64,000 bases of DNA from the IMG/VR virus record IMGVR_UViG_2974753081_000001, positions 64,001 to 128,000 of that record; one strand, 5' to 3'. Positions 32,525 to 61,525 of this stretch are shown one piece after another. A program made the position numbers and the translations under genes. The DNA is from a virus (taxonomy: Duplodnaviria; Caudoviricetes). The first letter of the stretch is position 1. Each line of letters opens with the position of its first letter. A model generated the notes under the pieces. It was not told where the DNA came from. It was given only the letters and a program-made list of their open reading frames with translations, and did not search any database.

Positions 32525-32577
32525 CTTGCCATGACCGCTACACATGTGTATATTCAGTGGTGTCAGGGCCGCAGGCC
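32523..32577 (+). promoter_or_regulatory. SigA-type promoter cassette 1
   Basis: TTGCCA-N17-TATATT, TACACATGTGTA, GGCC-GCA-GGCC. Confidence 0.85.
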
Positions 32578-32603
32578 GAAGCTCCACACGGAGGACGAAC
32601 ACC

Positions 32604-32852
32604 ATGAGCGACATGACCGTCGGAGAATTGATCGAACTGCTCCAGCAGTACGACGAGGACGCGACCGTGCGTCTGGCGACCCAGCCGAACTACCCGCTCG
32701 AATACCGCCTCGCAGGCGTTGCCGATGCGGGTCAGGTGGCTGAGGTGCAGGGCGACGAGCCCGACGACGACACTCCGAACGTCGTCTACCTCGCCGAAGG
32801 CAGCCAGGTTGGCTACGCCAGCAAGGCGATCTGGGACGCGGCGGGCTGGTGA
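32604..32852 (+). CDS. Hypothetical protein
   Basis: MTVGELIELL.. common phage small-protein start; GGAGG RBS. Confidence 0.7.
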   Translation: MSDMTVGELIELLQQYDEDATVRLATQPNYPLEYRLAGVADAGQVAEVQGDEPDDDTPNVVYLAEGSQVGYASKAIWDAAGW

Positions 32853-33070
32853 CCACGATGGCTACCGCGACCAAGCGCCTGCGCTGCGAGGAATGCAACT
32901 GTTTCGTCTCCGAGAAGGAGGCGGAGACCAGCTGGGAGCCCGAGTGGGACGACGACCACGGTCGCCCCATCGGGGCGTGGGTCCGCACGACCCGCTGCAA
33001 CAACCCGAATTGCCCCGGCGACGGTGAGGTCTACCTGGGCCTCGCCGAGTACTCCGAGGTGTATGGCTGA
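32849..33070 (+). CDS. Zn-ribbon hypothetical protein
   Basis: CEEC ... CNNPNC. Confidence 0.55.
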   Translation: MTTMATATKRLRCEECNCFVSEKEAETSWEPEWDDDHGRPIGAWVRTTRCNNPNCPGDGEVYLGLAEYSEVYG

Positions 33071-33157
33071 CGGCCATCTTTGTTCGGAGCCCACATGGGG
33101 GATGGGCTCCGTTCATGGATCACCGATCCAGCTCGATCCCGACCAGAAGGAAAAATC

Positions 33158-33562
33158 ATGACCGCCACCATCACCGAGGTGTCGCCCCAGACCGTCGCCA
33201 CCGCGCGTCGGGCTCTGGCGCTCATCGCCTCCGAACAGCGCCTCATCGGCTACGCCGAGTTCGGCGACCTACTCACCGCGCTCGGCGTCGAGGGAGTGCC
33301 CCCGCGCGAGCACTACAGCCTCCGCAGCCGATACCTCGGCCACGTGCTCGGGGCTGTCGGGCTGGAGAACGGACGGCGCGGTGAGCCACTGCTGACCGCC
33401 ATCGTTCGCCATGTCGTCAACGGCAAGCTGGCCGAGGTCAACCCGAAGGGGTATGCCTGGCCGGTCGAGCAGGTCTACGGCCTGGAGCTGTCCAGCAACT
33501 CTGCCGTCGCCCACTCTCACCGCGAAGCTGAGCGGTGCCACGCACACCAGTGGGTGCTCTGA
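33158..33562 (+). CDS. Winged-helix-like hypothetical protein
   Basis: L..IA....IGYAEF ... GEPLLTAIV; CCCGACC + RBS. Confidence 0.65.
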   Translation: MTATITEVSPQTVATARRALALIASEQRLIGYAEFGDLLTALGVEGVPPREHYSLRSRYLGHVLGAVGLENGRRGEPLLTAIVRHVVNGKLAEVNPKGYAWPVEQVYGLELSSNSAVAHSHREAERCHAHQWVL

Positions 33563-34005
33563 TGGTGGAACTGACCCGAGCCCACGACCTCTCGGCTCGC
33601 GATGGTGTTGACGCTGCGGTCGCTGATGCGATCTCGATGCTGCGGGACGCGAAGAAGGCCATGCGCTCACGCACGCTCGCCGAGCTGATGCGCCTGGAGG
33701 AGTCCAGCGCCGAGTTCGGCACGTTCTCGGTGGTCCGCACTGCCGACCGCAAGGGGTACCGCGACCCGCGCAGCTTCAACGACGAGCGCAGCCCCTACCA
33801 GGACGACCAGAAGGTCCTCATCACCATCGAGATCGAGGTGGAGGACTGGGACCTGACCGACGGCTTCGTCACTCACGCCGCCGAGCTGGAGCGAACCGAG
33901 GAGGCGCTGCAGGCCCAGGTGGAGATCGCCGAGGCGCAGCGCGTCATCGCCGAACAACAGGAGCGCATCGCACGGCTCGCGAAGAAGGTCGCCCCTGGGC
34001 CGTAA
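33562..34005 (+). CDS. Hypothetical protein, C-terminal coiled coil
   Basis: TGATG coupling. Confidence 0.6.
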   Translation: MVELTRAHDLSARDGVDAAVADAISMLRDAKKAMRSRTLAELMRLEESSAEFGTFSVVRTADRKGYRDPRSFNDERSPYQDDQKVLITIEIEVEDWDLTDGFVTHAAELERTEEALQAQVEIAEAQRVIAEQQERIARLAKKVAPGP

Positions 34006-34029
34006 CGTTTTCTGACAGACCACCGATAC
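34002..34029 (+). promoter_or_regulatory. SigD-like promoter GTAACG-N16-CGATAC
   Basis: Family member, upstream of Ltp gene. Confidence 0.7.
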
Positions 34030-34076
34030 ACCCGACAGCAGTACATCGATCCCGACCAATTCAGGAGAAAAAAATC

Positions 34077-34607
34077 ATGAGCACGAACTACCCGCAGGCC
34101 CCCATCCCCGCCACCGAGCCCAAGCGCAAGAAGCGCAAGTGGCCGTGGGTGCTGGGCATCCTCGCCGTCCTCGGCATCATCATCGCGGTTGCCAGCCCGA
34201 AGGAGGCCGAGACCTCCGAGCCCGCTGCGGCCCCGACCTCGCAGGCCGAGGCCCCGGCCAACGTGCCGACGCCCACTCCGGCTCCGGTCAAGACCGAGGA
34301 GGCCGAGTCGTCGGACTCGCTGTCCAAGGAGCAGAAGAACGCAGTGCGCTCGGCAGAGCAGTACGTCTCGATGACCGGGTTCAGCCGGTCGGGCCTGATC
34401 GAACAGCTCAGCTTCGAGGGCTACTCGACCGAGGACGCTACGGTGGCCGTCGACAGCATGGACATCGACTTCAACGAGATGGCTGCCAAGTCGGCCAAGC
34501 AGTACCTGGACATGACCGGGTTCTCGCGCGATGGTCTCATCGAGCAGCTGACCTTCGAGGGGTACACCCCCGAGCAGGCTGCCTACGGTGCCGACAACGC
34601 TGAGTGA
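34077..34607 (+). CDS. Ltp-family (superinfection-exclusion-type) membrane-anchored protein
   Basis: TM anchor, P/A linker, two repeats A..SA.QY..MTGFSR.GLIEQL.FEGY....A. Confidence 0.85.
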   Translation: MSTNYPQAPIPATEPKRKKRKWPWVLGILAVLGIIIAVASPKEAETSEPAAAPTSQAEAPANVPTPTPAPVKTEEAESSDSLSKEQKNAVRSAEQYVSMTGFSRSGLIEQLSFEGYSTEDATVAVDSMDIDFNEMAAKSAKQYLDMTGFSRDGLIEQLTFEGYTPEQAAYGADNAE

Positions 34608-34699
34608 CCTGCTCTGACAGGTAGTTTCGCTCCCGCCCCCAGGGGATGCGGGCGGGGGCGTTACTAGTGCCAGAGAAGTCCCGACCAGAAGGAGACCCC

Positions 34700-35308
34700 G
34701 TGCCCGAGACCGACATCTACTCCGAGCGCCTGCTCGCCGTATTCAATCTCATCGCCGACCAGCCCCAGGCCCACGACCAGGGGCACTGGGGCACGATCCC
34801 GACCTCTGCTGTTCGGCAGGTGAGGGACGAGATCGAGGAGGTCGACACCACAGATTCGTACTTGGACCGCGCGCTGCCGAACAAGGTCGCCATCGATTGC
34901 GGCACGGCGGCGTGCTTTGCGGGCTGGACCGTGCTGCGCGAGGGCGGCAAGCCGGTGCTGTCGTCTCTGGAAATCTCCGCCAACGCCCGCGTTGATGGCG
35001 ACGTGATGACTTTCGGCAACGTCCTCATGCCCGGCGAGGATGAGCCCAGGTCGGTGGCACAGGTCGCGACGGAGCTGCTGTTCGGCGACCGTGATCGTCG
35101 GTGGTTGGCCGACGACCTGTTCAACGGCTACAACACCCGCTCCATCATCCGGGGCTTGGTGCTCGACCTGCTCAACGGTGTCGATGATGCCCTGATCTCT
35201 GAGCGCATCGATGCGGAAGCCTATGGCGAACAGAAAGGCCCGGACGGCCCGGATGATGAGGCGGTGGAGCCGATTCGCTTCGACGAGTCGCTGGGGGTGT
35301 ACGTCTGA
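34700..35308 (+). CDS. Hypothetical protein
   Basis: HDQGHW ... CGTAACFAGW motif; CCCGACC + RBS. Confidence 0.7.
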   Translation: MPETDIYSERLLAVFNLIADQPQAHDQGHWGTIPTSAVRQVRDEIEEVDTTDSYLDRALPNKVAIDCGTAACFAGWTVLREGGKPVLSSLEISANARVDGDVMTFGNVLMPGEDEPRSVAQVATELLFGDRDRRWLADDLFNGYNTRSIIRGLVLDLLNGVDDALISERIDAEAYGEQKGPDGPDDEAVEPIRFDESLGVYV

Positions 35309-35781
35309 TGCCGACCAAGACCGGTGCTCGACTCACAGCGCAGGATGCGCTCTCGGCCCTCGGCAGCAGCAATGGCTGGGAGGTCCGGGCCGGAGCGTTC
35401 AGTGAGCGGCGGCTGTCGTTCGAGCGTGGCGGCGTCAAGGCCACCATGCTCACCGCTGACTTCCACCCCGGCGGCGCGCTGAAGAACGCCATCCGCTACG
35501 AGGGCGGGAAGGTAGTGGCCGAGCTGCGCAAGGACGACCCCAAGCGTCGCAAGACGTTCGAGGGGTGGTTGCGCGAGAAGCCCGCGTTAACCGATCCGAA
35601 CAGGTTCAAGGTCGAGCCCATCGACCCCGACACCGGGGCCTCGGCAGCCGAGCCCGAGGTCGAGTCGCCAGAGGTCAAGTTCTGCGGCCTGCCGTCGGCG
35701 CAGATGGGCTGCGTCCTCTGCGGAGCCGTCGTTTTCGACATGCGGGCGCACACCGAATGGCATAAGGGGATGGGCCGATGA
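35308..35781 (+). CDS. Hypothetical protein, C-terminal C2H2-like motif
   Basis: CVLC...H..WH. Confidence 0.6.
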   Translation: MPTKTGARLTAQDALSALGSSNGWEVRAGAFSERRLSFERGGVKATMLTADFHPGGALKNAIRYEGGKVVAELRKDDPKRRKTFEGWLREKPALTDPNRFKVEPIDPDTGASAAEPEVESPEVKFCGLPSAQMGCVLCGAVVFDMRAHTEWHKGMGR

Positions 35782-35975
35782 TCCAGGTCAAGCCCATCGA
35801 GAACGAGATGTGGCAGGTGACCAGCAACGGGCGCTGGTGGACCGTCGCGCGTATCCGCACCTTCACGATGGTCGGCTGGCACATCATGAACGAGACCGGT
35901 CGGACGATCAGCGCGGACGGCCAGCTCGGTCGCAAGCTGATCGCGGCGGTCCAGGCAAAGCTGGAGGAGGTCTGA
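35778..35975 (+). CDS. Hypothetical protein
   Basis: Coupled ORF. Confidence 0.55.
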   Translation: MIQVKPIENEMWQVTSNGRWWTVARIRTFTMVGWHIMNETGRTISADGQLGRKLIAAVQAKLEEV

Positions 35976-36166
35976 TGGCACAGACGAGGCGCGTGTGTGC
36001 GCGCTGCGGACGTGAGCGCGCAGAGAAGCACCTGGAGCGACTGTTCACCGCCCGGCCTTGGGGTCTCACCCAGACCAGGATTCTCCCGACCTCGGTGTGG
36101 GTCTGCTATGCCAGGACGTCGTGCAAGCAGATCGCAAAGGGGGAGCGTCGTGCAGCACGAGTCTGA
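35975..36166 (+). CDS. Hypothetical protein
   Basis: GGAGG RBS. Confidence 0.5.
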   Translation: MAQTRRVCARCGRERAEKHLERLFTARPWGLTQTRILPTSVWVCYARTSCKQIAKGERRAARV

Positions 36167-36500
36167 TCCCCAGGACGACATCGACTGGAGCGGCCCCGTC
36201 GAGAACATGGAACGCTTCGCCGAGTACATGCGGAACCAACCGCCGGACCTCCCTCATCTCACTGAGGGTGAATCGTCGCGGCAATGCCTGGATGCGGGCC
36301 TGGTGTGCTCCATCGACCCGCGTACGGGTAAATGCACCGAGTGCGGATGCTATGAGCATCCCGAGGAGAATCACGTCCACTTCGCCTTCGACGCCGCGCG
36401 ACCCGGCTGGACGACGCCGATCTATGACGTCCACGGGCACAAGGTCTCCGACCCGGTGCCGATCGACTCGCTGCCGAGACACGGCGATGAGCGTCCCTGA
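36150..36500 (+). CDS. Hypothetical protein
   Basis: GGGAG RBS. Confidence 0.5.
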   Translation: MQHESDPQDDIDWSGPVENMERFAEYMRNQPPDLPHLTEGESSRQCLDAGLVCSIDPRTGKCTECGCYEHPEENHVHFAFDAARPGWTTPIYDVHGHKVSDPVPIDSLPRHGDERP

Positions 36501-36954
36501 GTACGCCACCACGGGTGTCGTGCTGCTGGCCCTGCTCATCGGCATGTACTGCTCGGCAGACCACCTTCGACGCCTGCGGAGGCAGAGCATGGACTGGACC
36601 GAGAACGCCCGGCAGCTGATCGCGATGGAGGATGCTGCTCTCGCGCGGAGGTGTTCTGAGGAGAACGCACGCTGGCTGGAGGACCCGACCCACTACCTCA
36701 TGGAGGTCACTGGACTCGATGTCGCCAAGGTGCTGTTCGGCTACGTGCAGCGCGAGAAGGTATCTCTGGTCAAGGCACCCCGTCCCCGCCATACGACGGC
36801 AGGGTCCCTACCCAATACCGAGATCGTTCTCCATTTCACCAGGCCCGAGGAACTGGTCTCCCAGATCGTCGCCATGTCGCGCGTGTCGCCGCCGACGGGT
36901 GGGCAACTCGCGCGCATCGTCCGGGAAGTCGAGGACGGTTCCATCGACCTGTAA
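36487..36954 (+). CDS. Hypothetical protein with N-terminal TM
   Basis: Hydrophobic N-terminus; start re-called. Confidence 0.55.
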   Translation: MSVPEYATTGVVLLALLIGMYCSADHLRRLRRQSMDWTENARQLIAMEDAALARRCSEENARWLEDPTHYLMEVTGLDVAKVLFGYVQREKVSLVKAPRPRHTTAGSLPNTEIVLHFTRPEELVSQIVAMSRVSPPTGGQLARIVREVEDGSIDL

Positions 36955-36979
36955 CGATCTGCCCCGACCTGAGCGATAC
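36951..36979 (+). promoter_or_regulatory. SigD-like promoter GTAACG-N17-CGATAC
   Basis: Family member. Confidence 0.65.
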
Positions 36980-37017
36980 TCCAATCACCCCGACCAACCC
37001 TGTCCTGAGGAGGACCC

Positions 37018-37776
37018 ATGAGTCACTTTGTCGTCGTCGTCGCACTGCCCGGCCACCTGCTCACCCACGATGAGCTGGACGCGGCCTTGGATGCTGCACT
37101 GGCTCCCTACGACGAGAACGTCGAGATGCCGCGCTACGTGCGGCACACTCGCGACGAGCTGATTAGGCGAGAGCGCGAGAGCATGGAGCAGATGTTCTCG
37201 ATCGGATCGGTTGGAAGATACTTGGCCGATCCCGTCGAGTACGCCGAGAAGTACGGCGGCATGAAAGGGCACCTGGCCCACGTCCGCCAGCTCATCGATG
37301 AGAAGCCGCTCGACACCTGGACCGACGAGCAGTGGCACATCAGGGCGCTGCAGAGCTACGAGCCCGACGAGATCGGCCCCGTCGGCGAGGTCTACTCCAC
37401 CTACAACCCACGCTCGAAGTGGGACTGGTGGAGTGTCGGTGGCCGCTGGGCGGGGTTCTTCAAGTTCCGCGAAGGCATCGATGAGGCGACCTACGACCGG
37501 CTCGGGACCAGGCCGTCGATCTTCGACCTGCCCGAGGACATGGACCCGATGGCCACCGACTGCGCGCGCAAGGGCGACCTCACGCGCGAGAGCCTGGACC
37601 GCACTCCATATGCCTACGTGGACCCCGAGCTGGGGTGGATCGAGAAGGGCCAGATGGGGTGGTTCGGGATGTCCTCGGGCGACAAGCCTGAGTCCGAGTG
37701 GCAGGAGCAGTACGCCGCGTGGCTCGGCTCCCTGGACGACAAGACCTGGCTCGTGGCTGTCGACGCACATATCTGA
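37018..37776 (+). CDS. Conserved-type phage hypothetical protein
   Basis: MSHF.V ... NPRSKWDWW.VGGRW ... GQMGWFG ... VDAHI. Confidence 0.8.
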   Translation: MSHFVVVVALPGHLLTHDELDAALDAALAPYDENVEMPRYVRHTRDELIRRERESMEQMFSIGSVGRYLADPVEYAEKYGGMKGHLAHVRQLIDEKPLDTWTDEQWHIRALQSYEPDEIGPVGEVYSTYNPRSKWDWWSVGGRWAGFFKFREGIDEATYDRLGTRPSIFDLPEDMDPMATDCARKGDLTRESLDRTPYAYVDPELGWIEKGQMGWFGMSSGDKPESEWQEQYAAWLGSLDDKTWLVAVDAHI

Positions 37777-37787
37777 GAGGGATCGCC

Positions 37788-38782: not shown

Positions 38783-38996
38783 CCCGTTCGAGCTGATCAA
38801 GGCTCGGTTGAAGGAGCAGGTCCAGCGGCACACGCCGCTCGGCAGCGAGGTCGACACCATCGAGAGCGTGGTGTTCTTCAGCGAGGAAGTTCGCGTTCAC
38901 TACATCGACCAGCACGGTGACATGTGGTCGTGTCTCGTGCCGGTCGAGGCGCTGCTGACGGCGTTCTTCGACCTGGTGATGTCGGAGGGGTCATGA
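38775..38996 (+). CDS. Hypothetical protein
   Basis: GGAGG RBS. Confidence 0.55.
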   Translation: MLSPFELIKARLKEQVQRHTPLGSEVDTIESVVFFSEEVRVHYIDQHGDMWSCLVPVEALLTAFFDLVMSEGS

Positions 38997-39973: not shown

Positions 39974-39997
39974 CGCTCCGGCGGTCTCCGCCGATGT
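39970..39997 (+). promoter_or_regulatory. SigD-like promoter GTAACG-N16-CGATGT
   Basis: Family member. Confidence 0.7.
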
Positions 39998-42578: not shown

Positions 42579-42633
42579 GGCTTGCACCACCCTCTATACG
42601 TGTGTATATTGGGTGGTGTCAGGGGCACAGCCC
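42579..42633 (+). promoter_or_regulatory. SigA-type promoter cassette 2
   Basis: TTGCAC-N17-TATATT, TATACGTGTGTA, GGGC-ACA-GCCC. Confidence 0.85.
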
Positions 42634-42657
42634 ACCAACCTCCACAGAGGAGCCATC

Positions 42658-42939
42658 ATGGCAACCACCATCGTCACCGATCCCACCACCATCGAGCTGC
42701 CCGCGCGCGACGCCATCGTCCGTTCCTACTCCGGCAAGATCGGCTGCGCCTGCGGCTGCCGGGGCAACTACGGCGAGACCTCGCGCTCGAAGGCCATCGT
42801 GCTCGGCAAGGTCGAGAAGCTGCTCCAGTGGTCCCTGGAGGACCCCACGGCTCCCCTGGAGTGGATGGCTTGCTCGCAGTTCATCGCGGTCGACAACCGC
42901 GAGACCGGTCGGTCCTACACCCTCTACCTGGAGAACTGA
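42658..42939 (+). CDS. Hypothetical protein
   Basis: GAGGAG RBS; YSGKIGCACGCRG. Confidence 0.7.
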   Translation: MATTIVTDPTTIELPARDAIVRSYSGKIGCACGCRGNYGETSRSKAIVLGKVEKLLQWSLEDPTAPLEWMACSQFIAVDNRETGRSYTLYLEN

Positions 42940-42978: not shown

Positions 42979-43033
42979 GACTTGCACCACACTCTACACG
43001 TGTGTATATTCATAGGTGTTAGGGACGCAGTCC
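42979..43033 (+). promoter_or_regulatory. SigA-type promoter cassette 3
   Basis: TTGCAC-N17-TATATT, GGAC-GCA-GTCC. Confidence 0.85.
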
Positions 43034-43058
43034 GCCAACCCCCACGAAGGGACTCATC

Positions 43059-43208
43059 ATGCAGGTCAACGACTACCGCGCCGCAGGAGCCGACGATGTT
43101 CGGTTCGCCGCCAAGCGTCACCGCCGCAACGGCGAGCACGCCATCGCCGACGCGCTGGAGGCCATCGCCAACCGCATCGCTCGCCAGGAGCTGGAGGAGG
43201 CTCGATGA
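43059..43208 (+). CDS. Small hypothetical protein (49 aa, not in ORF track)
   Basis: First ORF after cassette 3, MQVNDYRAAG... Confidence 0.55.
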   Translation: MQVNDYRAAGADDVRFAAKRHRRNGEHAIADALEAIANRIARQELEEAR

Positions 43209-43545: not shown

Positions 43546-43929
43546 ATGGCTGCCAAGCACGACCCCACCAACCACCCGTTCGAGGTCGGCATGGAGGTGC
43601 TGATCGATGACGTGAACCGTCGCGGTCGCCCGCTCACCGAGGCCGTCGTCTCCAAGGTCGGTCGCAAGCTCGTCTACGCGACCATGTACGGGCGCGACGT
43701 CGGGTTCCGCCTGGAAACCCGCGCGGCCAACGACAACTACGGCCACCAGAGCATCTGGACGCCGGAGGAGGTCGCTGAGCGCGAGCGCCGGGCGTACCTG
43801 GACCGTCGGCTCGCAACCTACGGCCTGCGCTCAGAGTTCGGAGGCACGAAGTTCCGCGAGCTGCCGACTGAGGTGGTTGAGGAGCTGCTGGAGGTCCTGG
43901 ACCGGCACGCCGAGCGTGATTCGGACTAG
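43546..43929 (+). CDS. Hypothetical protein
   Basis: V.KVGRK motif; GAGGA RBS. Confidence 0.65.
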   Translation: MAAKHDPTNHPFEVGMEVLIDDVNRRGRPLTEAVVSKVGRKLVYATMYGRDVGFRLETRAANDNYGHQSIWTPEEVAERERRAYLDRRLATYGLRSEFGGTKFRELPTEVVEELLEVLDRHAERDSD

Positions 43930-44012
43930 GACTTATCGCTACACCCATGTATTGTCATTCCTGAAATGGGCACACACACGCCCACCACGCTCGCAGAGGA
44001 GAAAAAAAAATC

Positions 44013-44756
44013 ATGACCCCGACCAAGACCAATGCCCGCACCCGGATGCTCGCGCGCGTCGCCGATCTGGGGTGGGAGCTGGACCCCACCGCGAAGGTGC
44101 CTCTGTCGCGCTTCGAACGTCACGTCCTGGTGCAGAATGAGACCGCGTTCCGCAAGCGCGCCGCTCACGGCGGCTGGTGGAAGATACTGCTCGACTACAG
44201 TCAGACCAGCGGGTCCTGGCGCACGGTTATCGGAACCACACTGCGTGGCATCCAGATCAACTGGACCGAAAACGAGGTTCATTCCGGCAAGGTGATTGGG
44301 GTGCTGAAGAATCCCCGATCATCTCGATACGGGTCCAGATTTCTGTGGCTTGCCTCTGGCGACCCCAGCGACCCGATGAAGAAGCACGCCGAGACGTTCC
44401 TGGCTGATCCTGACCTGGTCGTGTGGCTCAGTCAGGAGCTGCGGCACAAGGACATCGAGGAGACCCGAGCGCGCCATGCGGAGCAGCGACGCATCGAGAA
44501 ACTGCGCGAGCAGCTGCTCCCGGTCAAGGGCCTGACGGAGAATGCGCGGTGGAGGTTCGCCTACGTCTCTCCATTCAAGCGCGCATCCGCCGAGCTGATC
44601 AAAGCTGACGGCCTCACCGATCTGCCGAAGGTGATGGCCGAGACGTGGAATGAGTTGGAGCGTCTGGTCGAGTACCTGACGCCGGAGGCCCGCGAGGCAT
44701 TCCAGAAGCACCTGGACGACCTGAGCGGCGCTGCCGTGACGGACTTGGACGCCTGA
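44013..44756 (+). CDS. Hypothetical protein
   Basis: GAGGAG + A-tract before ATG. Confidence 0.7.
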   Translation: MTPTKTNARTRMLARVADLGWELDPTAKVPLSRFERHVLVQNETAFRKRAAHGGWWKILLDYSQTSGSWRTVIGTTLRGIQINWTENEVHSGKVIGVLKNPRSSRYGSRFLWLASGDPSDPMKKHAETFLADPDLVVWLSQELRHKDIEETRARHAEQRRIEKLREQLLPVKGLTENARWRFAYVSPFKRASAELIKADGLTDLPKVMAETWNELERLVEYLTPEAREAFQKHLDDLSGAAVTDLDA

Positions 44757-49404: not shown

Positions 49405-49459
49405 GACTTGCACGCACGTCTACACATGTGTATATTCGTAGGTGTAAGGGCCACAGGCC
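49405..49459 (+). promoter_or_regulatory. SigA-type promoter cassette 4
   Basis: TTGCAC-N17-TATATT, TACACATGTGTA, GGCC-ACA-GGCC. Confidence 0.85.
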
Positions 49460-49483
49460 ACCAAATCCCCAGGAGGAGCCACC

Positions 49484-50164
49484 ATGACCACCACCGCCAC
49501 CGTCCGCCCCATCGCCGGAGTCGACGCCAAGGACGGCCAGATCGGCTATGTCGAGGTCCTGCTCGCCGAGCGCAACTGGGCTGAGGCCACCCCCGCCACC
49601 TACGCGATGCGCGCTGGCGAGATCGCTGCCGCCATCCAGATCGTTCGCAACCCGGAGCTGGCTGCCAAGGCCGGTGCCACCGCTCCGTTCGACGGCGGCA
49701 AGCTCAACCAGGTGCTCCACTTCGCCAACTCCAAGCCGCTGACCATCAAGGGCGCGAGCGCGCTGATCGACTGGCTGAAGACGGTGGAGCGCAAGGCCGC
49801 TCCGGCTCGCACCGCTCACACCCGTCCGGCCACCGCACTCCCCGAGGTCCCCGCCGGACGCTATGCCGTCGCCACCGACAAGGGCGCGATCAACGAGATC
49901 GCCTTCTACGTGGTCGACCGCCCGGAGACCGGCAAGTGGGCGGGCTACACCTTCGTCAAGCGCCTGGAGAGCGACACCGAGGTTCGCCTCGGTCGCGCGC
50001 AGGCCGCGACGGTGCTCGCCAAGATCGCCGCCGATCCCGCTGCTGCCAGCAAGCTCTACGGCCACGAGATCGGTGCCTGCGGCGTCTGCGGTCGCACCCT
50101 CACGAATGACGCCAGCCGCGAGGCCGGTATCGGTCCGAAGTGCCAGGCCAAGGCTGGCTGGTGA
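49484..50164 (+). CDS. Protein with C-terminal DUF6011-like Zn finger
   Basis: CGVCGRTLT...S...GIGPKC. Confidence 0.75.
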   Translation: MTTTATVRPIAGVDAKDGQIGYVEVLLAERNWAEATPATYAMRAGEIAAAIQIVRNPELAAKAGATAPFDGGKLNQVLHFANSKPLTIKGASALIDWLKTVERKAAPARTAHTRPATALPEVPAGRYAVATDKGAINEIAFYVVDRPETGKWAGYTFVKRLESDTEVRLGRAQAATVLAKIAADPAAASKLYGHEIGACGVCGRTLTNDASREAGIGPKCQAKAGW

Positions 50165-54333: not shown

Positions 54334-54661
54334 CGACGACTTCGAAACCGTGGGACGGCTGCTCGCCAATGTTCGGGAGATGGTCGCGGGGCTCGGTCGC
54401 CCCGGCCACGACCGCCCCTTCGTCTCGCTGATGCTGCGCGAGGACGACGGCGTCACGCTGCAGGTGCTCCGCCTAGACCCGGACCAGTTCCCCGAGTTCC
54501 GCCACCCGCGCTCACCGGTCCGGGTGTCGCACATCCGCGACGAGGATGGCTCTGTTGTCGTGGTGCTCGCGTGCAAGCGCGGCGAGCTGCTCGACGTGCT
54601 GCAGACCACGCTCGCCTATCTGCTGCTCCGCCCCGAGGACCGGGAGGGACTTGCTAGCTGA
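54326..54661 (+). CDS. Hypothetical protein
   Basis: AAGGAGG RBS. Confidence 0.55.
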   Translation: MNNDDFETVGRLLANVREMVAGLGRPGHDRPFVSLMLREDDGVTLQVLRLDPDQFPEFRHPRSPVRVSHIRDEDGSVVVVLACKRGELLDVLQTTLAYLLLRPEDREGLAS

Positions 54662-54702
54662 TCTATACGTGTGTATATTGAGTGGTGTTAGAGGCACAGC
54701 CC
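54648..54702 (+). promoter_or_regulatory. SigA-type promoter cassette 5
   Basis: TTGCTA-N17-TATATT, TATACGTGTGTA, GGC-ACA-GCC. Confidence 0.8.
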
Positions 54703-54725
54703 ACACCCTCACCGAGGAGATCGAC

Positions 54726-54881
54726 ATGTACGCACCCGCACCCACCGCCCGCGAGGCCGCATGGGACGCCGCGATGGACATCCACGACACCGTGAGCGAG
54801 GACGGCCACACCTGCGGCTGCGGCCAGGATGTCGCCGAGTGCCAGTTCGATCTCAGCCACCTGGAGGACCCCGAGGACTGA
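54726..54881 (+). CDS. Small hypothetical protein
   Basis: GAGGAG RBS after cassette. Confidence 0.55.
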   Translation: MYAPAPTAREAAWDAAMDIHDTVSEDGHTCGCGQDVAECQFDLSHLEDPED

Positions 54882-55102: not shown

Positions 55103-55128
55103 GGCCCCAGGCCACCAAGGAGAAAATC

Positions 55129-55650
55129 ATGACCGCCTTCGAGAACCGCCACGGGTTCACTCTGCATCGCACCCCCAGCCACGGCGATTTCGACCGCAAG
55201 ACCAACACCGTGTTCGACGAGAATGTGGACCGGTGGGTGAACGCCGATGCGTTCTATGCCCACTACGGCATCGATGCACCGACCTACACCGACGCCGACA
55301 CCCGCATGCCGTTCCGCAAGGCGTTCGCGATCGTCGTGGGCTCGGTGGCCGCGTTCCTGGTCTTGCTCGCGCTGACCGGCGGTCTCGGAGGCGGGCACGA
55401 CGACACCTCGGAGCCGGTGACCAAGGCCGACCGATTCCTCGCGCAGATGGAGGAGGAGGAGATCGCCAACACCCGTGGCGACACCGGGCAGCTGGAGGCC
55501 GGGTTCTGGATTTGCGGCCTGGCTCAGGACGGCTACTCCTATAACGAGATCGTCAACACCGTCTCCGACAACTCGCCGGGGCTCGGCTACGGCAAGTCGA
55601 TGGTGCTGGTGTCCTACGCCATTGAGATCCTCTGCCCGCAGTACAGCTGA
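55129..55650 (+). CDS. Membrane protein with C-terminal DUF732-like domain
   Basis: TM segment, D.FL.....I...G.WIC.....G ... A...LCP.Y. Confidence 0.7.
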   Translation: MTAFENRHGFTLHRTPSHGDFDRKTNTVFDENVDRWVNADAFYAHYGIDAPTYTDADTRMPFRKAFAIVVGSVAAFLVLLALTGGLGGGHDDTSEPVTKADRFLAQMEEEEIANTRGDTGQLEAGFWICGLAQDGYSYNEIVNTVSDNSPGLGYGKSMVLVSYAIEILCPQYS

Positions 55651-55664
55651 GATACGATGGCCGC

Positions 55665-56423
55665 ATGGCCGAACTGAAGTGGCTAGGGCCACCCGGCAGC
55701 GGCAACTCCGCAGAGGTCATCACCCGCGACGACGTCACTGCCAAGAAGGGCACCGCGATGTCGGCTGCCCAGATCGACGCCCAGATCAGTGCCGCGCTCA
55801 CCGGCTACTCACTGAAGACCTACGTCGACTCGCAGGACTCGCCCAAGGCGCTGCTGTCGTATGTGAACTCGCGCGACGCGACCAAGCTCACTCGCGAAAT
55901 GCGCGGTGCTCCGAACGGCGCTCTGCCCCTGGACGCCAGCGGCATGATCCCCAAGGCGTACCTGAACAACAACTACCCCGCCTTCAACAAGGCGGTCCGG
56001 GGCTACTACTCCCCGGCGAGCTACGTCTCGACCAACTGGACCTCGCTCACCACTCAGAACGCCCAGAAGCTCTGCGCCGACATCACCATCCCCGACCCCG
56101 GCTATCCGTACCTGATCATCCCGTATGGCTACTGGGAGTGTCAGGTCAACTCGGCCTCGGGCGACAACACCTACCCGGAGATCAACGTCCGCGTCGGCAC
56201 GCGCGTGATCGGTCGCGGCGTGGGCGCGCTCAACATCATCGAGCCGCACAACTGCACCATCGGCCCCTACGACACCGTCGGCACGCCATTCACCGGCACC
56301 CAGACGGTGACCTGCCACGGCGGGCGCTGGAGGCCGTCTGGCTCCAACACCACGTCCATCAGCATCTTCGGGGCATCGACGGCCACCCCGCCCAAGCTGA
56401 TCCTGTTCCTGGCTGCCGCGTGA
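55665..56423 (+). CDS. Fibre/minor tail-like protein, paralog 1
   Basis: KTYVDSQD, NG.LPLDASG.IP..YL, beta-rich C-terminus. Confidence 0.65.
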   Translation: MAELKWLGPPGSGNSAEVITRDDVTAKKGTAMSAAQIDAQISAALTGYSLKTYVDSQDSPKALLSYVNSRDATKLTREMRGAPNGALPLDASGMIPKAYLNNNYPAFNKAVRGYYSPASYVSTNWTSLTTQNAQKLCADITIPDPGYPYLIIPYGYWECQVNSASGDNTYPEINVRVGTRVIGRGVGALNIIEPHNCTIGPYDTVGTPFTGTQTVTCHGGRWRPSGSNTTSISIFGASTATPPKLILFLAAA

Positions 56424-56430
56424 GGTCGAC

Positions 56431-57174
56431 ATGGCGAAGCTGAAGAACGTCGGCGCGTACCCGAACACCGAGGACTCGCTCGGGCGCACCGACTTCATGA
56501 ACACGACGTTCTCCGACCGAGGCGTGGTGCCCGCCGACGTCACCGCTGCGATGGATCAGGCCAAGGCCCCGCTCGCGCTGAAGACCTACATCGACGCCCA
56601 GGACGCGCTGTACACCACCAAGAGCTACGCCGACACCCAGGACAACCTGCTCATCGATGCCAGCCAGCTCGGGGCGTCCAACGGCATCGCCCAGCTCGGA
56701 GCCAACAGCAAGGTCACCGCGTCGGCTCTGCCACTGGCCGCAACCGTCCGGTCGCACAACTTCACCTACGGCACGATCAAGACGGTCTCCAGCGCGGGCG
56801 TCTACTGCACCAGCTTCACCGTCCCCAACCCAGGGTTCCGGTGGCAGCCGCTGTGGTCGGGGTGGACGATGTCGCGCTACTACGCCTCGCCCTACTGCTT
56901 TCCGGGCGTCTCGATCCGCGACAGCACCGGCAAGTGGGTGGCCCGAGGCTACGGATCGGGGCGCAACCTCAACGAGTGGTATCCCACCCCAATCACCAAC
57001 ACCCGCTATGAGACCGCTCCGCCGATCTGGTACGACGGCTCGGAGACGTTCGATCTGTACTACACCCGCGAGTACGGCACCGGGCAGGTTCAGGTCGGCC
57101 ACCTGTACTCGTGGTTCCAGTGCATGGTCGTCGCCGCAGCCAGCTCCACCACATCGCCGGTCGTCATCACGTAG
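56431..57174 (+). CDS. Fibre/minor tail-like protein, paralog 2
   Basis: KTYIDAQD, KSYADTQD, NGIAQLGANSKV..S.LP. Confidence 0.65.
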   Translation: MAKLKNVGAYPNTEDSLGRTDFMNTTFSDRGVVPADVTAAMDQAKAPLALKTYIDAQDALYTTKSYADTQDNLLIDASQLGASNGIAQLGANSKVTASALPLAATVRSHNFTYGTIKTVSSAGVYCTSFTVPNPGFRWQPLWSGWTMSRYYASPYCFPGVSIRDSTGKWVARGYGSGRNLNEWYPTPITNTRYETAPPIWYDGSETFDLYYTREYGTGQVQVGHLYSWFQCMVVAAASSTTSPVVIT

Positions 57175-57184
57175 GAGGACATCC

Positions 57185-57955
57185 ATGCCCGCTCTCCGTA
57201 GCGTCGGCCCCGTCCCGGTCTCGGGCAACGGTCTGGTCACCCGTGGCACCGCCGACGCCATGCTCACCGGCATGGTGGGACATGACGTTCTCGCCTCGAA
57301 GGTGGATGCCGCTGTCGCGCCGTATGCGCAGAAGTCCTACGTCGACACCCAGGACGGCTTGCTCGCGACCAAGGCCCAGGTGGACGCTGGGGACGCGCTG
57401 CTGATGCCGACCAGCTGGAAGAACGCCGCCAACGGCGTCTGCGGTCTCTCCGGCACCGACCTGCCGACCGCCAGGGTTCCTCGGGTTCCGGTGCTGCCCA
57501 CCATCTTCCAGCGGTCCTGGTACTACAACGACTTCACCCCGCTCGCCGCCAACGTCGGTGCTGAGGGTGAGATTGTCATCCTGAATGCTTCGATGCAGCT
57601 GCCCTCGAATGATCCGAGCGTCTACTACCGATTCATGTGTTTTGGCAACTTCGAGGGGTGGGCGCTCTCCGGCTCTGCCCCCTACAACAACCTCAGCGGC
57701 AAGCCGGTTTTCCGCGTGTATGTCAACGGCTACCTGTGCGGATACGGAGCGGGGCGCAATGGCGCGGGCTCGGCAGCTCCGTCTCCAGTGCCGGTGACCC
57801 CGGTCGCCGACAACCTCGGGCACGTGCCGGGTACCGGATGGACGAACAGCACCGCGACGGTGCGCGTCACCATCGCCTCGGCGTTTGCGAGCACGATGGT
57901 CAAGTACGACCCGACGCCGCAGACGCTGCTGACGATCATCGTCGTATCTGCGTAG
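57185..57955 (+). CDS. Fibre/minor tail-like protein, paralog 3
   Basis: KSYVDTQD, NGVCGLSG..LP; AGGAGG RBS; start re-called. Confidence 0.65.
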   Translation: MPALRSVGPVPVSGNGLVTRGTADAMLTGMVGHDVLASKVDAAVAPYAQKSYVDTQDGLLATKAQVDAGDALLMPTSWKNAANGVCGLSGTDLPTARVPRVPVLPTIFQRSWYYNDFTPLAANVGAEGEIVILNASMQLPSNDPSVYYRFMCFGNFEGWALSGSAPYNNLSGKPVFRVYVNGYLCGYGAGRNGAGSAAPSPVPVTPVADNLGHVPGTGWTNSTATVRVTIASAFASTMVKYDPTPQTLLTIIVVSA

Positions 57956-58010
57956 GGCTTGCACTAAACGCTACACGTGTGTATATTCGTAGGTGTTAGG
58001 GACGCAGTCC
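57956..58010 (+). promoter_or_regulatory. SigA-type promoter cassette 6
   Basis: TTGCAC-N17-TATATT, TACACGTGTGTA, GGAC-GCA-GTCC. Confidence 0.85.
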
Positions 58011-58034
58011 ACCACCCCCACGAAGGGACCTCCG

Positions 58035-58970
58035 ATGACCACCACCGCTACCCGCAAGCACACCCGCAAGCCGATGTCGGCTGCCAAGCGCGAGCAGGCC
58101 GCTGCCGCCCGCAAGGAGCAGGCCGAGGCGCTGCAGGCCGGACTCGCCGCCCAGGTCGCCGAGATGGCTTCGGGTGCCGCGTGGCGCGACTACCTGGACT
58201 TCGCGGGCAACTTCCACCGCTACTCGCTGCGGAACACGCTGCTCATCATGGTTCAGCACCCCACCGCCACCTCGGTCGCCGGATACAAGGCGTGGCAGGA
58301 GCGCGGTCGCCAGGTCATCAAGGGCGAGAAGGCCATCCGCATCTATGGCTTCGCTCAGAAGAAGGTCGAGGACGAGGTGACCAAGGAGGTCACCTACCAG
58401 ACCTACTTCCCCATCGTCTCGGTGTTCGCCGAGGACCAGACCGCGCCGATTACCGACGACATGATCGCCGACATCCGCAAGGCCAACCCGAAGGCGATCA
58501 CGTTCGCCGAGGCTCCGGTCAACCCGACCCAACGCCTGCAGGGCACCGATGACACCGACATCCTCGGGCGCGTCGCGGCGTTCGTGGAGGGCAACGGCTG
58601 GGAGTTCGCCATCGAGGCCGTCGGCGGCGGAGCCAACGGGTTCACCACCATCGACGGCACCAAGCGCGTCGTGGTCGAGGCCAACCTGGCTCCGGCGCAG
58701 CAGGCCAAGACCGCGCTGCACGAGGCCGCGCACATGATCCTCCACACCGACGAGGAGGGCATGGTTCTGGACCGCGCCACCAAGGAGCTGGAGGCCGAGA
58801 GCGCCAGCTACGTCGCCTCCAAGATGCTCGGCCTGGACTCCGAGGGCTACAGCATCGGGTACCTCACCGGCTGGAGCCAGGGCAACCCCGACGCGGTGAA
58901 GGCGACCGCCGAGCGGGTCCTGAAGGCCGCGCACCGGATCATCGAGGCGTTGGACCCCACCGACGACTGA
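58035..58970 (+). CDS. ardC: ArdC-like antirestriction protein (ssDNA-binding + HExxH domain)
   Basis: YS.RN.LLI, VAGY.AW...GRQV.KGEKAI.I, LHEAAH, ELEAE. Confidence 0.8.
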   Translation: MTTTATRKHTRKPMSAAKREQAAAARKEQAEALQAGLAAQVAEMASGAAWRDYLDFAGNFHRYSLRNTLLIMVQHPTATSVAGYKAWQERGRQVIKGEKAIRIYGFAQKKVEDEVTKEVTYQTYFPIVSVFAEDQTAPITDDMIADIRKANPKAITFAEAPVNPTQRLQGTDDTDILGRVAAFVEGNGWEFAIEAVGGGANGFTTIDGTKRVVVEANLAPAQQAKTALHEAAHMILHTDEEGMVLDRATKELEAESASYVASKMLGLDSEGYSIGYLTGWSQGNPDAVKATAERVLKAAHRIIEALDPTDD

Positions 58971-58977
58971 CCGACCC

Positions 58978-59015
58978 GGCGGGGGCTGTAACGAATCGGC
59001 CCCCGCCACCGATCA
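58978..59015 (+). promoter_or_regulatory. Terminator-like hairpin overlapping SigD-like promoter GTAACG-N16-CGATCA
   Basis: GGCGGGGGCTG-TAACGAAT-CGGCCCCCGCC; CGAT at 59010. Confidence 0.6.
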
Positions 59016-59042
59016 CCCACCACCCCGACCAAGGAGAAAATC

Positions 59043-59522
59043 ATGGACTTCGCCACCGCACTCACCCTGTCGATCAACGAGGAGTGGGGTCGTCACGTCG
59101 CGGCCAACGAACGACTGGGCGGACTGCCGTCGACACCGCGCGACGTGTTCGCTCTCACCTGCGCCAATTTCATCATCGCCGCGCGCGTCCATTCCATGTG
59201 CGAGTTTCCCGACGACACCACCTACGGCACGTTCTACAACTGCCGCGAGTACGGCGTGACCTACCATCGGCGCGGCTGGACGTTCGCGCTCTACGAGCAC
59301 CGCAACTCCGACCAGATCATTCTCAACGGCTGCCCCGACCCCGAGGTGCAGAGCTACGGGCCGTATGGCGACGTGGACGACAAGCACAACTACTTCGTTG
59401 CGCTCGGCCCCGAGGACTACTGGCCCGCTGCGGACGCACTGAAGCAGGCGCTGTCCGTTGCGAGCCCCGCCCTGACTCGGCAGGAGATGAAGGACCTGTT
59501 CGACTCGGACTTCGCACGCTAG
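59043..59522 (+). CDS. Hypothetical protein
   Basis: CCCGACCAAGGAG; FYNCREYG, EHRNSD. Confidence 0.7.
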   Translation: MDFATALTLSINEEWGRHVAANERLGGLPSTPRDVFALTCANFIIAARVHSMCEFPDDTTYGTFYNCREYGVTYHRRGWTFALYEHRNSDQIILNGCPDPEVQSYGPYGDVDDKHNYFVALGPEDYWPAADALKQALSVASPALTRQEMKDLFDSDFAR

Positions 59523-59555
59523 GCTCCCAACACCCCCGACCGAAAGGCTGTCCCG

Positions 59556-59825
59556 ATGATCACTCCCACCCCTGGCAACAAGGTCCTGGAATCGCCGGAC
59601 GGCGTGCCCTACGACCGCGTCCTGCATGCGTTCCTGGACACCCGGCACGTGGCCGTCGACTCCGAGGGCAAACCCGTGGGTCCAACCATGGGCGACCCGT
59701 TCGACCGCTGCATGATCCCCGTCGCGGTCTCAATGGACGTCTGCGACCACTCGACGGCGATCTGCAACGGCTGCCTGCAGGAGTGGGCCATCGACTACGA
59801 CTTCGCCGAGCTGACCGTATCCTGA
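59556..59825 (+). CDS. Hypothetical protein
   Basis: CCCGACC upstream. Confidence 0.55.
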   Translation: MITPTPGNKVLESPDGVPYDRVLHAFLDTRHVAVDSEGKPVGPTMGDPFDRCMIPVAVSMDVCDHSTAICNGCLQEWAIDYDFAELTVS

Positions 59826-59874
59826 CGGGGACCGGGGGCTGCTGGAAATAAAAATCCGGCAACCCCCGGCTTTG

Positions 59875-59938
59875 GACTTGCATCATTCCCTACACGTGTG
59901 TATATTTAGTGGTGTCAGGAAGACCAAGGCCGCAGGCC
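59875..59938 (+). promoter_or_regulatory. SigA-type promoter cassette 7
   Basis: TTGCAT-N17-TATATT, GGCC-GCA-GGCC. Confidence 0.85.
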
Positions 59939-59961
59939 ACCAACACCCCACGGAGGACAAC

Positions 59962-60303
59962 ATGTACACCACCCCCAACACCGCAGCCGCCACCTTCCAG
60001 GTCGGACAGGTCCTGGCCGAGCCTCTGGTCACCGACACCATCACCTACGAGGTCGTCAAGACCACCGCCCACACCGTCACCGTCCGCCGGACCCAGGACG
60101 GCGGCGAGCCGATCCGGGACCTCAAGGTCGACCAGGGTGACTACCCGGTCCTCTGGACCCCTCAGGTCCCCTGCCCCGAAGCGCCCGCCAAGACCCTCCG
60201 CATCCGCAAGGACGGAAGCATCCGCTTCGGCGGCGGCTACAAGCTCCGCCCCGCAGCCACGATCGAAGGCCAGCCCGTCCGGCGCGTCGATTACCGGTTC
60301 TAG
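59962..60303 (+). CDS. Hypothetical protein
   Basis: F.VG ... YEVVKTT..TV; GGAGG RBS. Confidence 0.7.
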   Translation: MYTTPNTAAATFQVGQVLAEPLVTDTITYEVVKTTAHTVTVRRTQDGGEPIRDLKVDQGDYPVLWTPQVPCPEAPAKTLRIRKDGSIRFGGGYKLRPAATIEGQPVRRVDYRF

Positions 60304-60309
60304 TCCGAG

Positions 60310-60333
60310 GAGCGGGGGCTTCGGCCCCCGCTC
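60310..60333 (+). terminator. Terminator hairpin with TTCG tetraloop
   Basis: GAGCGGGGGC-TTCG-GCCCCCGCTC. Confidence 0.7.
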
Positions 60334-60358
60334 TCTTCGGCTCCTACGGGCTCTCCCC

Positions 60359-60413
60359 GACTTGCATCTGACGCTACACGTGTGTATATTCGTAGTTGTA
60401 AGGGCCACCGGCC
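60359..60413 (+). promoter_or_regulatory. SigA-type promoter cassette 8
   Basis: TTGCAT-N17-TATATT, GGCC-ACC-GGCC. Confidence 0.85.
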
Positions 60414-60438
60414 ACCAAGCCTCACAGAGGAGATTCCG

Positions 60439-60711
60439 ATGAACGACATGATGCACCGCCCCGAGGTTTCCTTCCCGCTTCGCGCGATCGGCAAGGGCGA
60501 GTACGAGGGCACCAAGGTCATCAACGGCACCAAGGTCGTCATGAACGCCGACAAGTCGATGTGGGCCGAGAACACCTGGAGCCTGCACGTCTGGACCGTC
60601 AAGGCCGACGAGGACGGTTACGAGCGATACACCCTCATCCACAAGAGCACCGAGTGGAGCCTGAAGGACTGCCGGATGCAGGCCAAGATGATCGCCACCT
60701 ACGAAATCTGA
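60439..60711 (+). CDS. Hypothetical protein
   Basis: GAGGAG RBS. Confidence 0.65.
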   Translation: MNDMMHRPEVSFPLRAIGKGEYEGTKVINGTKVVMNADKSMWAENTWSLHVWTVKADEDGYERYTLIHKSTEWSLKDCRMQAKMIATYEI

Positions 60712-60743
60712 TCCCCACCCCGGCCAACTGATCCCACCAAGGG

Positions 60744-60765
60744 GGCGGGGGCTTCGGCCCCCGCC
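60744..60765 (+). terminator. Terminator-like hairpin with TTCG tetraloop
   Basis: GGCGGGGGC-TTCG-GCCCCCGCC. Confidence 0.65.
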
Positions 60766-60792
60766 ATCCCCATTCCCAGAACGGAACCCGCC

Positions 60793-61107
60793 ATGAACCC
60801 CGCCCAGATCGCTGCCTACCGCGCCGCTGCTCTCGCCGATTTCTCCGACCGTGACCTGCTCAACGAACTGCTCTCGCGCGTCGGACAGCGCGTAGCTCAG
60901 CTCCCGGAAGTTCGGGTCGGCGAGATCGACGTGGACGTGAACGACGCGATGATGGAAGCCGCCATCGACCTGGCTGCCGAGATGGGTGTCGACGCAGACG
61001 ACGTCGCGCGCCCGGACCCCAAGCCGGAGATGGACATCGTCGTCTCGGCGGCGGAGCTGTTCTACGGCCTCTCGGCGCTGGCGGGCTTCGACATCGTCAC
61101 CATCTAG
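60793..61107 (+). CDS. Hypothetical protein
   Basis: ORF between hairpin and cassette 9. Confidence 0.6.
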   Translation: MNPAQIAAYRAAALADFSDRDLLNELLSRVGQRVAQLPEVRVGEIDVDVNDAMMEAAIDLAAEMGVDADDVARPDPKPEMDIVVSAAELFYGLSALAGFDIVTI

Positions 61108-61171
61108 GACTTGCGCTGCGCGCTACACGTGTGTATATTTAGTGGTGTCAGGAAGACCAAGGCCGCAGGCC
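61108..61171 (+). promoter_or_regulatory. SigA-type promoter cassette 9
   Basis: TTGCGC-N17-TATATT; 59 bp identical to cassette 7. Confidence 0.85.
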
Positions 61172-61194
61172 ACCAACACCCTCAGGGAGTCACC

Positions 61195-61458
61195 ATGAAC
61201 GCCATCGACATTCAGACCGTCACGATTGTTCGAGAGGGCGAAGAGATCGTGAAGGTCTTCGCCGGAGCCCACCGGGTCCGCGCTGTAGCCGAGAAGATGT
61301 TCCCCGAGAGCGTCCAGCAGACGTGGGAGACCCTGGCCGACCCCACGGTCGTCACCCATTGCATCGAGTCCAGGTACTTCGTCATCCGAGGCATCGACCA
61401 TCGCGGCGACTACGAACGCTTGTTCCGCGTCAGCCACGAGCCGGTCGAGACCTTCTGA
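61195..61458 (+). CDS. Hypothetical protein
   Basis: GGGAG RBS. Confidence 0.65.
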   Translation: MNAIDIQTVTIVREGEEIVKVFAGAHRVRAVAEKMFPESVQQTWETLADPTVVTHCIESRYFVIRGIDHRGDYERLFRVSHEPVETF

Positions 61459-61470
61459 GTCACCAGCTAG

Positions 61471-61525
61471 GACTTGCACTAAACGCTACACCTGTGTATA
61501 TTTAGTGGTGTCAGGGACGCAGTCC
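61471..61525 (+). promoter_or_regulatory. SigA-type promoter cassette 10
   Basis: TTGCAC-N17-TATATT, TACACCTGTGTA, GGAC-GCA-GTCC. Confidence 0.85.

Follow-up and report, generated by a model that had tools for sequence, protein, structure and literature searches.

The stretch of DNA analysed here (the window) is 64,000 nucleotides (nt) long and comprises bases 64001-128000 of the virus record IMGVR_UViG_2974753081_000001, which has 136,319 bp and 65% G+C. Its intergenic regions carry a repeated module of about 80-95 bp, in which a SigA-type promoter is followed by a small hairpin whose stem varies in sequence and stays paired. From 5' to 3', the module comprises the stop codon of the upstream gene, the promoter, the hairpin, a C/A-rich tract, a GGAGG ribosome-binding site (RBS) and a start codon. 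The promoter contains TTGCAC (or a near variant), a 17-nt spacer and TATATT, and the next 12 nt, ending in GGTGTNAG, lead to the hairpin.

A search with the promoter core CTACACGTGTGTATATT (up to three mismatches) detected 10 copies in the window, all on the + strand, compared with 0.01 expected, and a 4-bp stem with a 3-nt loop followed in 10 of 10. The sequence-only reading had placed such a hairpin after every SigA-type promoter, and in practice this held. The ten hairpins it had listed were exact (GGCC-GCA-GGCC and GGAC-GCA-GTCC three times each; GGGC-ACA-GCCC, GGCC-ACA-GGCC, (A)GGC-ACA-GCC(C) and GGCC-ACC-GGCC once each), and the distance of 12 nt after the -10, or 21 nt in two copies, was found again. 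A scan of the whole genome on both strands, requiring at least 9 of 12 consensus positions, gave only four SigA sites, three of which were cassettes; the remaining cassettes scored 8 of 12. Two further copies of the promoter core lie elsewhere in the genome with the hairpin present in both, which makes 12 canonical copies. The pattern GGNCRCAGNCC matched 13 times in the window, against 3.97 ± 2.28 in shuffles.

A looser search of the window added two degenerate cassettes, and a search for the hairpin plus ACC added one promoter-less copy. Two relatives were found by scanning metagenomes with the ArdC-like protein of cassette 6. L020 (12.3 kb, ArdC identity 81%) is syntenic with window 52461-65507 and has five hairpin-bearing cassettes; L021 (1.45 kb, ArdC identity 70%) has two. 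The total of 22 hairpin copies thus comprises 12 canonical copies, 3 atypical ones in the window and 7 in the two relatives.

Six stem sequences were observed: GGCC, GGAC, GGGC, AGGC, GCGC and GCCC/GGGC. In an alignment of 21 copies, 78 of 80 base-pair cells (97.5%) were paired, and the only non-pairs were two A.C combinations, both at the outermost pair. Pair 2 was GC in 18 copies and CG in 2, while pair 3 was CG in 8, GC in 7 and AU in 5. These inner pairs showed compensating double substitutions only, with zero one-sided changes among the 21 copies. None of 500 column shuffles equalled the observed pairing or covariation score, and the covariation signal was lost when the partner column was slid by 1-3 positions. 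Conservation was highest at the closing C-G pair (21/21), followed by C at loop position 2 (20/21), A at loop position 3 (19/21) and the outer G-C pair (19/21). Loops and stems reassort, GCA occurring with four stems and ACA with two.

Since the copies share ancestry, comparisons between orthologous cassettes weigh most. The stem of the ArdC cassette is GGAC/GTCC in the window, GGGC/GCCC in L020 and GCCC/GGGC in L021, fully paired in all three. Cassette 8 has GGCC/GGCC and its L020 counterpart AGGC/GCCC; the outer A.C mismatch of cassette 5 corresponds to GGGC/GCCC in its L020 ortholog. The differences in the ArdC cassette and cassette 8 amount to several independent double substitutions. Since the stems show compensatory changes inside this genome as well as among the orthologous cassettes of three phages, selection acts on pairing and not on stem sequence. 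The sequence-only reading had proposed that either pairing or dyad symmetry is selected; its pairing half stands, also across relatives, and dyad symmetry as a protein site is weakened, since symmetric variants coexist. The coordinates of all features are collected in Table 1.

Table 1. Hairpin cassettes, atypical hairpin copies and sites of the second promoter class (window coordinates unless stated; aa, amino acids)
Feature	Position	Strand	Stem-loop	Start codon (product)	Other elements
Cassette 1	32526..32606	+	GGCC-GCA-GGCC 32567-32577	ATG 32604 (82-aa ORFan)	TTGCCA-17-TATATT; candidate operator CTACACATGTGTAT; RBS
Cassette 2	42582..42660	+	GGGC-ACA-GCCC 42623-42633	ATG 42658 (93 aa)	
Cassette 3	42982..43061	+	GGAC-GCA-GTCC 43023-43033	ATG 43059 (49 aa)	
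Cassette 4	49408..49486	+	GGCC-ACA-GGCC 49449-49459	ATG 49484 (226 aa, DUF6011 C-terminus)	
Cassette 5	54651..54728	+	AGGC-ACA-GCCC 54692-54702	ATG 54726 (51 aa)	Outer A.C mismatch
Cassette 6	57959..58037	+	GGAC-GCA-GTCC 58000-58010	ATG 58035 (311 aa, ArdC-N + M78/IrrE anti-restriction-like)	
Cassette 7	59878..59964	+	GGCC-GCA-GGCC 59928-59938	ATG 59962 (113 aa)	9-nt insert GAAGACCAA
Cassette 8	60362..60441	+	GGCC-ACC-GGCC 60403-60413	ATG 60439 (90 aa)	
Cassette 9	61111..61197	+	GGCC-GCA-GGCC 61161-61171	ATG 61195 (87 aa)	9-nt insert as in cassette 7
Cassette 10	61474..61551	+	GGAC-GCA-GTCC 61515-61525	ATG 61549 (80 aa)	
Degenerate cassette	28832..28903	+	GCGC-GTA-GCGC 28856-28866	GTG 28901 (287 aa)	Palindrome CTACACTGGTGTAG; weak -10; ACCAACCCCGACC; AGGAG
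Degenerate cassette	43927..44015	+	GGGC-ACACACAC-GCCC 43968-43983	ATG 44013 (247 aa)	GGACTT..CTACACCCATGTATTGT
Promoter-less copy	55103..55132	+	GGCC-CCA-GGCC 55103-55113	ATG 55130 (173 aa)	TAA stop; ACCA; AGGAG
GTAACG-N16-CGAT sites	17592, 21822, 22054, 25525, 34002, 36951, 38625, 39970, 45696, 50616, 51338, 58988; genome 61501	+			

In the degenerate copy at 43968-43983 the loop has grown from ACA to ACACACAC by apparent repeat slippage; the GGGC/GCCC stem is kept, and the -35 and -10 have decayed. The copies at 59890 and 61123 share the 9-nt insert GAAGACCAA between GGTGTCAG and the hairpin (59901-59927 and 61134-61160), so that the hairpin lies 21 nt past TATATT. Since the insert is identical, these two cassettes are probably recent duplicates; the genes downstream of them differ (113 and 87 aa). 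A 14-bp palindrome, CTACAC-NN-GTGTA(T/G), fills the spacer between -35 and -10 and overlaps the -10 (e.g., 57971-57984 and 28832-28845). Inside this genome its sequence is constant, and symmetric changes are seen only from lineage to lineage; at L021:553-571 both half-sites are altered symmetrically (TATAC-CT-GTATA). This palindrome resembles the operator of a dimeric regulator that would act on the early class as a whole.

Comparison with the relatives also showed changes in cassette content. L020 has a full SigA cassette (L020:2507-2580) at the junction orthologous to the promoter-less copy, and the genes that follow share 35% aa identity over 148 aa. The difference at this junction corresponds to gain or loss of the promoter half of the cassette. 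In L021 an extra cassette and a 110-aa gene are inserted ahead of ArdC (L021:1-620). The gene after the L020 cassette at 7428 (L020:7428-8100) matches a window gene that is placed elsewhere (59025-59381). With window 57900-59900 compared, genes appear to have been shuffled between the window and its relatives in units bounded by cassettes, similarly to the promoter-early stem-loop (PeSL) cassettes discussed below.

Outside these relatives, the searches returned nothing comparable. Scanning IMG/VR with the promoter core gave nine unrelated chance matches, and with the -10 plus hairpin none; searching IMG/VR by ArdC or DnaE found no relative, and no near relative was found among GenBank phages. 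A pattern scan of genome contigs gave 24 single matches in unrelated taxa, all by chance. In Finch we found no repeated unit and one consensus SigA site, and in Skog, E3, Phrappuccino, Alice, Myrna and Finch the promoter-plus-hairpin pattern did not exceed a reversed-pattern control. The covariance model R1 detected no new copies in 450 kb of loci, and fragmentary contigs from four wastewater DNA runs, which cover small shares of the stretch, held no cassette variants. With the Rfam covariance models, the sole match at gathering score was a tRNA (17736-17808), and region 57900-61650 gave no match at an expectation value up to 1. As more distant relatives and Rfam show nothing comparable, the hairpin element would be a lineage-specific invention.

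The DnaE-type polymerase shares 56% identity with Rhodococcus phage Finch, 48% with Rhodococcus equi phage E3 and about 40% with Bxz1-like mycobacteriophages; because of these identities, the phage is probably a large lytic-type actinophage, Finch/Bxz1-like, of high-GC actinobacteria. About a dozen genes are led by cassettes. They are small and mostly ORFans, apart from a DUF6011 protein and the ArdC-N + M78/IrrE-like protein encoded at 58035-58970 and driven by cassette 6. The closest homologues of the latter come from metagenomes (81%, 72% and 71%), followed by Actinomycetota genomes at about 45-50%, and a protein search gave ArdC-like proteins P0003-P0009 (53-72% identity) from closer relatives. 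This gene set fits early expression by the host polymerase. One tRNA-Arg (CCU) gene is located at window 17736-17809.

The genome has a second promoter class, GTAACG-N16-CGAT, which resembles extracytoplasmic-function (ECF) or SigD-type promoters. Its 13 copies occur on the + strand only and are interleaved with the cassettes. Their leaders are short, often contain CCCGACCAAGGAG and have no hairpin; because of this, the hairpin is specific to the SigA class. The Finch sigma factor had no homolog in the genome by tblastn, and no match to Sigma70_r2 was found.

Whether the hairpin acts as RNA or DNA was considered from folding, spacing and context. RNAalifold on the ten leaders predicted the hairpin helix and no other helix in the leader. 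Predicted folding energies were -2.3 to -6.2 kcal/mol for RNA and -1.4 to -3.3 kcal/mol for DNA. The distance from the -10 to the hairpin varies (11, 12, 19 and 21 nt), whereas 19 of 21 copies have their start codon 22-26 nt beyond the hairpin. The promoter-less copy is perfectly paired and lies directly 3' of a stop codon, inside a polycistronic context. The combination of hairpin, C/A tract and Shine-Dalgarno (SD) sequence is found on the + strand only, where 10 of its 11 matches are cassettes, with 0 on the - strand. The near-constant distance to the start codon, the changing distance to the -10, the promoter-less copy, restriction to the + strand and the more stable RNA fold together favour an RNA leader element over a DNA signal. 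The first three of these points also favour the 5'-UTR tag family of proposals in the sequence-only reading.

The sequence-only reading had described the C/A-rich tract as unstructured, which our analysis did not support, as neither structure nor its absence could be demonstrated in the tract. Pairing of CCUC/CUCC with the SD was often predicted, but not beyond shuffled tracts (mean -3.2 vs -2.4 kcal/mol). An extended UGGU/ACCA helix was rejected, being inconsistent across copies and without covariation. A terminator scan found nothing at the cassettes above the shuffle level, and there was no T-run at the hairpin.

We tentatively interpret the hairpin as a cis-acting RNA leader element of early mRNAs, serving stability and translation insulation; we consider this a plausible reading with somewhat less than even confidence. 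The hairpin most likely forms in the RNA leader made by the host RNA polymerase. Judged from the geometry of the promoter, about 5-7 nt would precede it at the 5' end, and it would end 22-26 nt before the start codon. Such a compact structured 5' region may slow 5'-end-dependent decay of early mRNAs. The hairpin may also shield the C/A-rich standby tract and the ribosome site from the G/U-rich leader, and this insulation would allow swappable genes to be expressed alike, whatever sequence lies upstream. Anatomy, number of copies, covariation, spacing and confinement to the SigA class are shown by the sequences, whereas folding as RNA and not DNA, the position of the 5' end, and the effect on stability or translation are what we infer. 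In Mycolicibacterium smegmatis, half-life can be predicted from features of the 5' untranslated region other than the ribosome site, and structure generally protects (PMC11532794).

Several points weigh against this interpretation. No RNA sequencing run was found to contain the stretch. The usual -10-to-start spacing would put the hairpin 5-7 nt, and in two copies 14-16 nt, from the 5' end; classic 5'-terminal protective hairpins sit nearer to it. The stem has only 4 bp. The R-C-A loop and the closing C-G pair are conserved beyond passive structural need, which hints at a reader protein. There are no G.U pairs among the copies, the two A.C mismatches would be G.T on the opposite strand, and in 13 of 22 copies (12 GCA, 1 GTA) the + strand carries a C-GNA-G loop, a known DNA mini-hairpin type. 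The relatives sampled are two only, and every copy descends from one cassette, so the link to the promoter may be partly inheritance.

The hint at a reader protein leads to the strongest rival, in which a dedicated protein, either an early product of the phage or a host factor, would recognise the hairpin as an RNA tag and give SigA-made early transcripts a common fate. We regard this as rather unlikely while giving it serious weight. Conserved closing pair, loop and outer pair with freely varying inner pairs are the usual pattern of a protein-read hairpin; the hairpin is confined to the SigA class and not found in the second promoter class, and a conserved linear element, GGUGUNAG, stands immediately 5' of it. 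At the early-to-middle switch, the transcripts could be repressed in translation or cleaved; alternatively, an antitermination factor could be loaded beside GGUGUNAG. T4 RegA and RegB act in the first way, by early-to-middle repression or cleavage, and lambda N loads antitermination at boxB. The closing C-G and R-C-A loop might then be a class label on early mRNAs made with host SigA, with a dedicated factor switching the class or conferring termination resistance, a doubtful proposal that we put at about one chance among several. To our knowledge, early-class control of the lambda-nut or T4-RegA/RegB kind has not been described for actinobacterial phages. However, no candidate RNA-binding protein was identified, stem and loop are unlike boxB, no terminators that need overriding were detected, and limited divergence among the copies could equally explain the conserved loop.

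A folded single DNA strand is the next rival. In the melted, initially transcribed region it would tune promoter escape or pausing, or it would serve a phage polymerase as an N4-like hairpin promoter. C-GNA-G is a very stable DNA mini-hairpin type, triloops are unusual for RNA, and the GNA loops and the A.C mismatches (G.T on the template strand) noted above would suit DNA. N4 promoters are also hairpins with 3-nt loops, in which non-conserved stem bases need only pair (PMC4496689). We nevertheless consider a DNA hairpin improbable. The hairpin stands at differing distances from the -10 and once occurs without a promoter, its loop departs from GNA in 9 of 22 copies, and the DNA folding energies given above are small. 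N4 uses GNA loops on the template strand and 5-7-bp stems upstream of the start. The genome has no match to the T7-like RNA polymerase domain PF00940, a weak test, as this family was matched in none of the control genomes, and its largest open reading frame in 136 kb is 1206 aa. With a SigA promoter upstream and GNA loops on the non-template strand only, the N4-type analogy of the sequence-only reading did not hold.

The hairpin could also be a functionless hitch-hiker spread by cassette recombination, its compensatory changes coming from template-switch 'quasipalindrome correction', in which one arm is copied onto the other. Correcting imperfect inverted repeats by template switching is a well-established route of mutation, all copies are homologous, and cassettes move or vanish between the relatives. 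This explanation appears quite unlikely: the six stem variants are perfectly paired at the inner pairs with no half-changed copy, the stem is kept in promoter-decayed degenerate cassettes and in the loop-expanded copy, and 4-bp arms are very short for template switching.

Very little probability was given to a dyad operator GGNC-N3-GNCC bound by a dimeric roadblock repressor just past the start site. The palindromic DNA would lie at about +6 to +16, and the cassette already has the operator-like CTACAC-NN-GTGTA. C-G, G-C and A-T at one pair, and G-C and C-G at another, coexist in one genome, however, and one protein cannot have co-evolved with all symmetric variants; an uncontacted position would vary independently on the two sides, which never occurs, and the promoter spacing varies.

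Equally remote is an endonucleolytic processing site, cut by RNase E or by RNase P (stem + ACCA as a mini-helix) to give cassette mRNAs a uniform 5' end: steady distance to the ribosome site, variable upstream length, one copy in a polycistronic context, an outer G-C pair with following ACCA in 16-18 of 21 copies, and the preference of mycobacterial RNase E for C-rich single-stranded RNA, which it cuts 5' of cytidines (PMC10641625), would agree with it, but ACCA is not hairpin-specific, and 4 bp is far from a natural RNase P substrate. Mimicry of a tRNA mini-helix for RNase P was downgraded for the first of these reasons, ACCAAGGAG being the ribosome-site context of hairpin-less leaders too.

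Apart from a few promoters, the signals that govern gene expression in actinobacteriophages are poorly characterised. The module combines promoter, candidate operator, covarying hairpin and ribosome site in a compact, easily mutated unit, and its natural compensatory variants form a mutational series. If the hairpin sets mRNA lifetime or translation, genetic work in Mycobacterium, Rhodococcus or Gordonia would gain a portable expression part. Should a protein read the hairpin, an early-to-middle switch would be exposed in a phage group without known regulators.

Among known systems, the lambda nut site consists of boxA and boxB, the latter a 5-bp stem with a GNRA-like pentaloop bound by the arginine-rich N protein. 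As in nut, a conserved linear element here precedes a short hairpin in an early-transcript leader. Unlike nut, the stem has 4 bp and the loop 3 nt, and no downstream terminators were identified; no N-like protein was identified either, with no search aimed at such proteins made. The ompA-type 5'-terminal stabiliser is a hairpin that lengthens mRNA half-life and has no more than a few unpaired nt between itself and the 5' end; here, promoter geometry predicts 5-7 unpaired nt, and 14-16 in two copies.

In phage N4, the early promoters P1-P3 are themselves hairpins, recognised by the virion RNA polymerase, a giant injected T7-like enzyme. They have a 5-7-bp stem, a 3-nt loop and a sheared G:A pair, and they lie on the template strand with their centre at -11 (PMC4496689). 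The element of the window resembles them in its small 3-nt-loop hairpin, in stem bases that need only pair and in GNA-type loop stability. It differs in its 4-bp stem, its varying spacing and its place after a complete SigA promoter. GNA loops occur here on the non-template strand only, the template-strand loops being TGC, TGT, GGT and TAC.

The nearest actinophage analogue is the start-associated sequence (SAS) with its extended form (ESAS) in Cluster K mycobacteriophages. These repeats lie at the translation starts of some non-structural genes, half of them with an inverted repeat just upstream, and their role is thought to be translational (PMC3203893). Both systems are tied to the translation starts of a subset of genes. 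In contrast to the present hairpin, the ESAS arms are 17 bp long and conserved in sequence, with a 4-13-bp spacer, and they lie outside any promoter unit; compensatory variation is not a defining ESAS feature.

Of the known kinds, the PeSL cassette of T4-type phages comes closest; the hairpin module is a functional cousin of these cassettes and not a member. In RB49 and phi1, the PeSL stem-loop is located upstream of the promoter and has been shown to terminate transcription (PMC2839356; PMC4122927). In the present module the -10 comes first and the hairpin follows after 11-21 nt, inside the transcribed leader; its stem is 4 bp long, a U-tract is absent, and the element is coupled to the ribosome site. 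The two systems also differ in host phylum and phage lineage and share no sequence homology. Both types combine a strong sigma70-type early promoter with a small G/C stem-loop, repeated in the gaps between small orphan genes. In both, the genes next to the copies come and go or change order from one close relative to another, as was observed against L020 and L021. The module thereby adds an actinophage case to the cassettes of promoter and small hairpin that seem to drive gene shuffling in large lytic phages.

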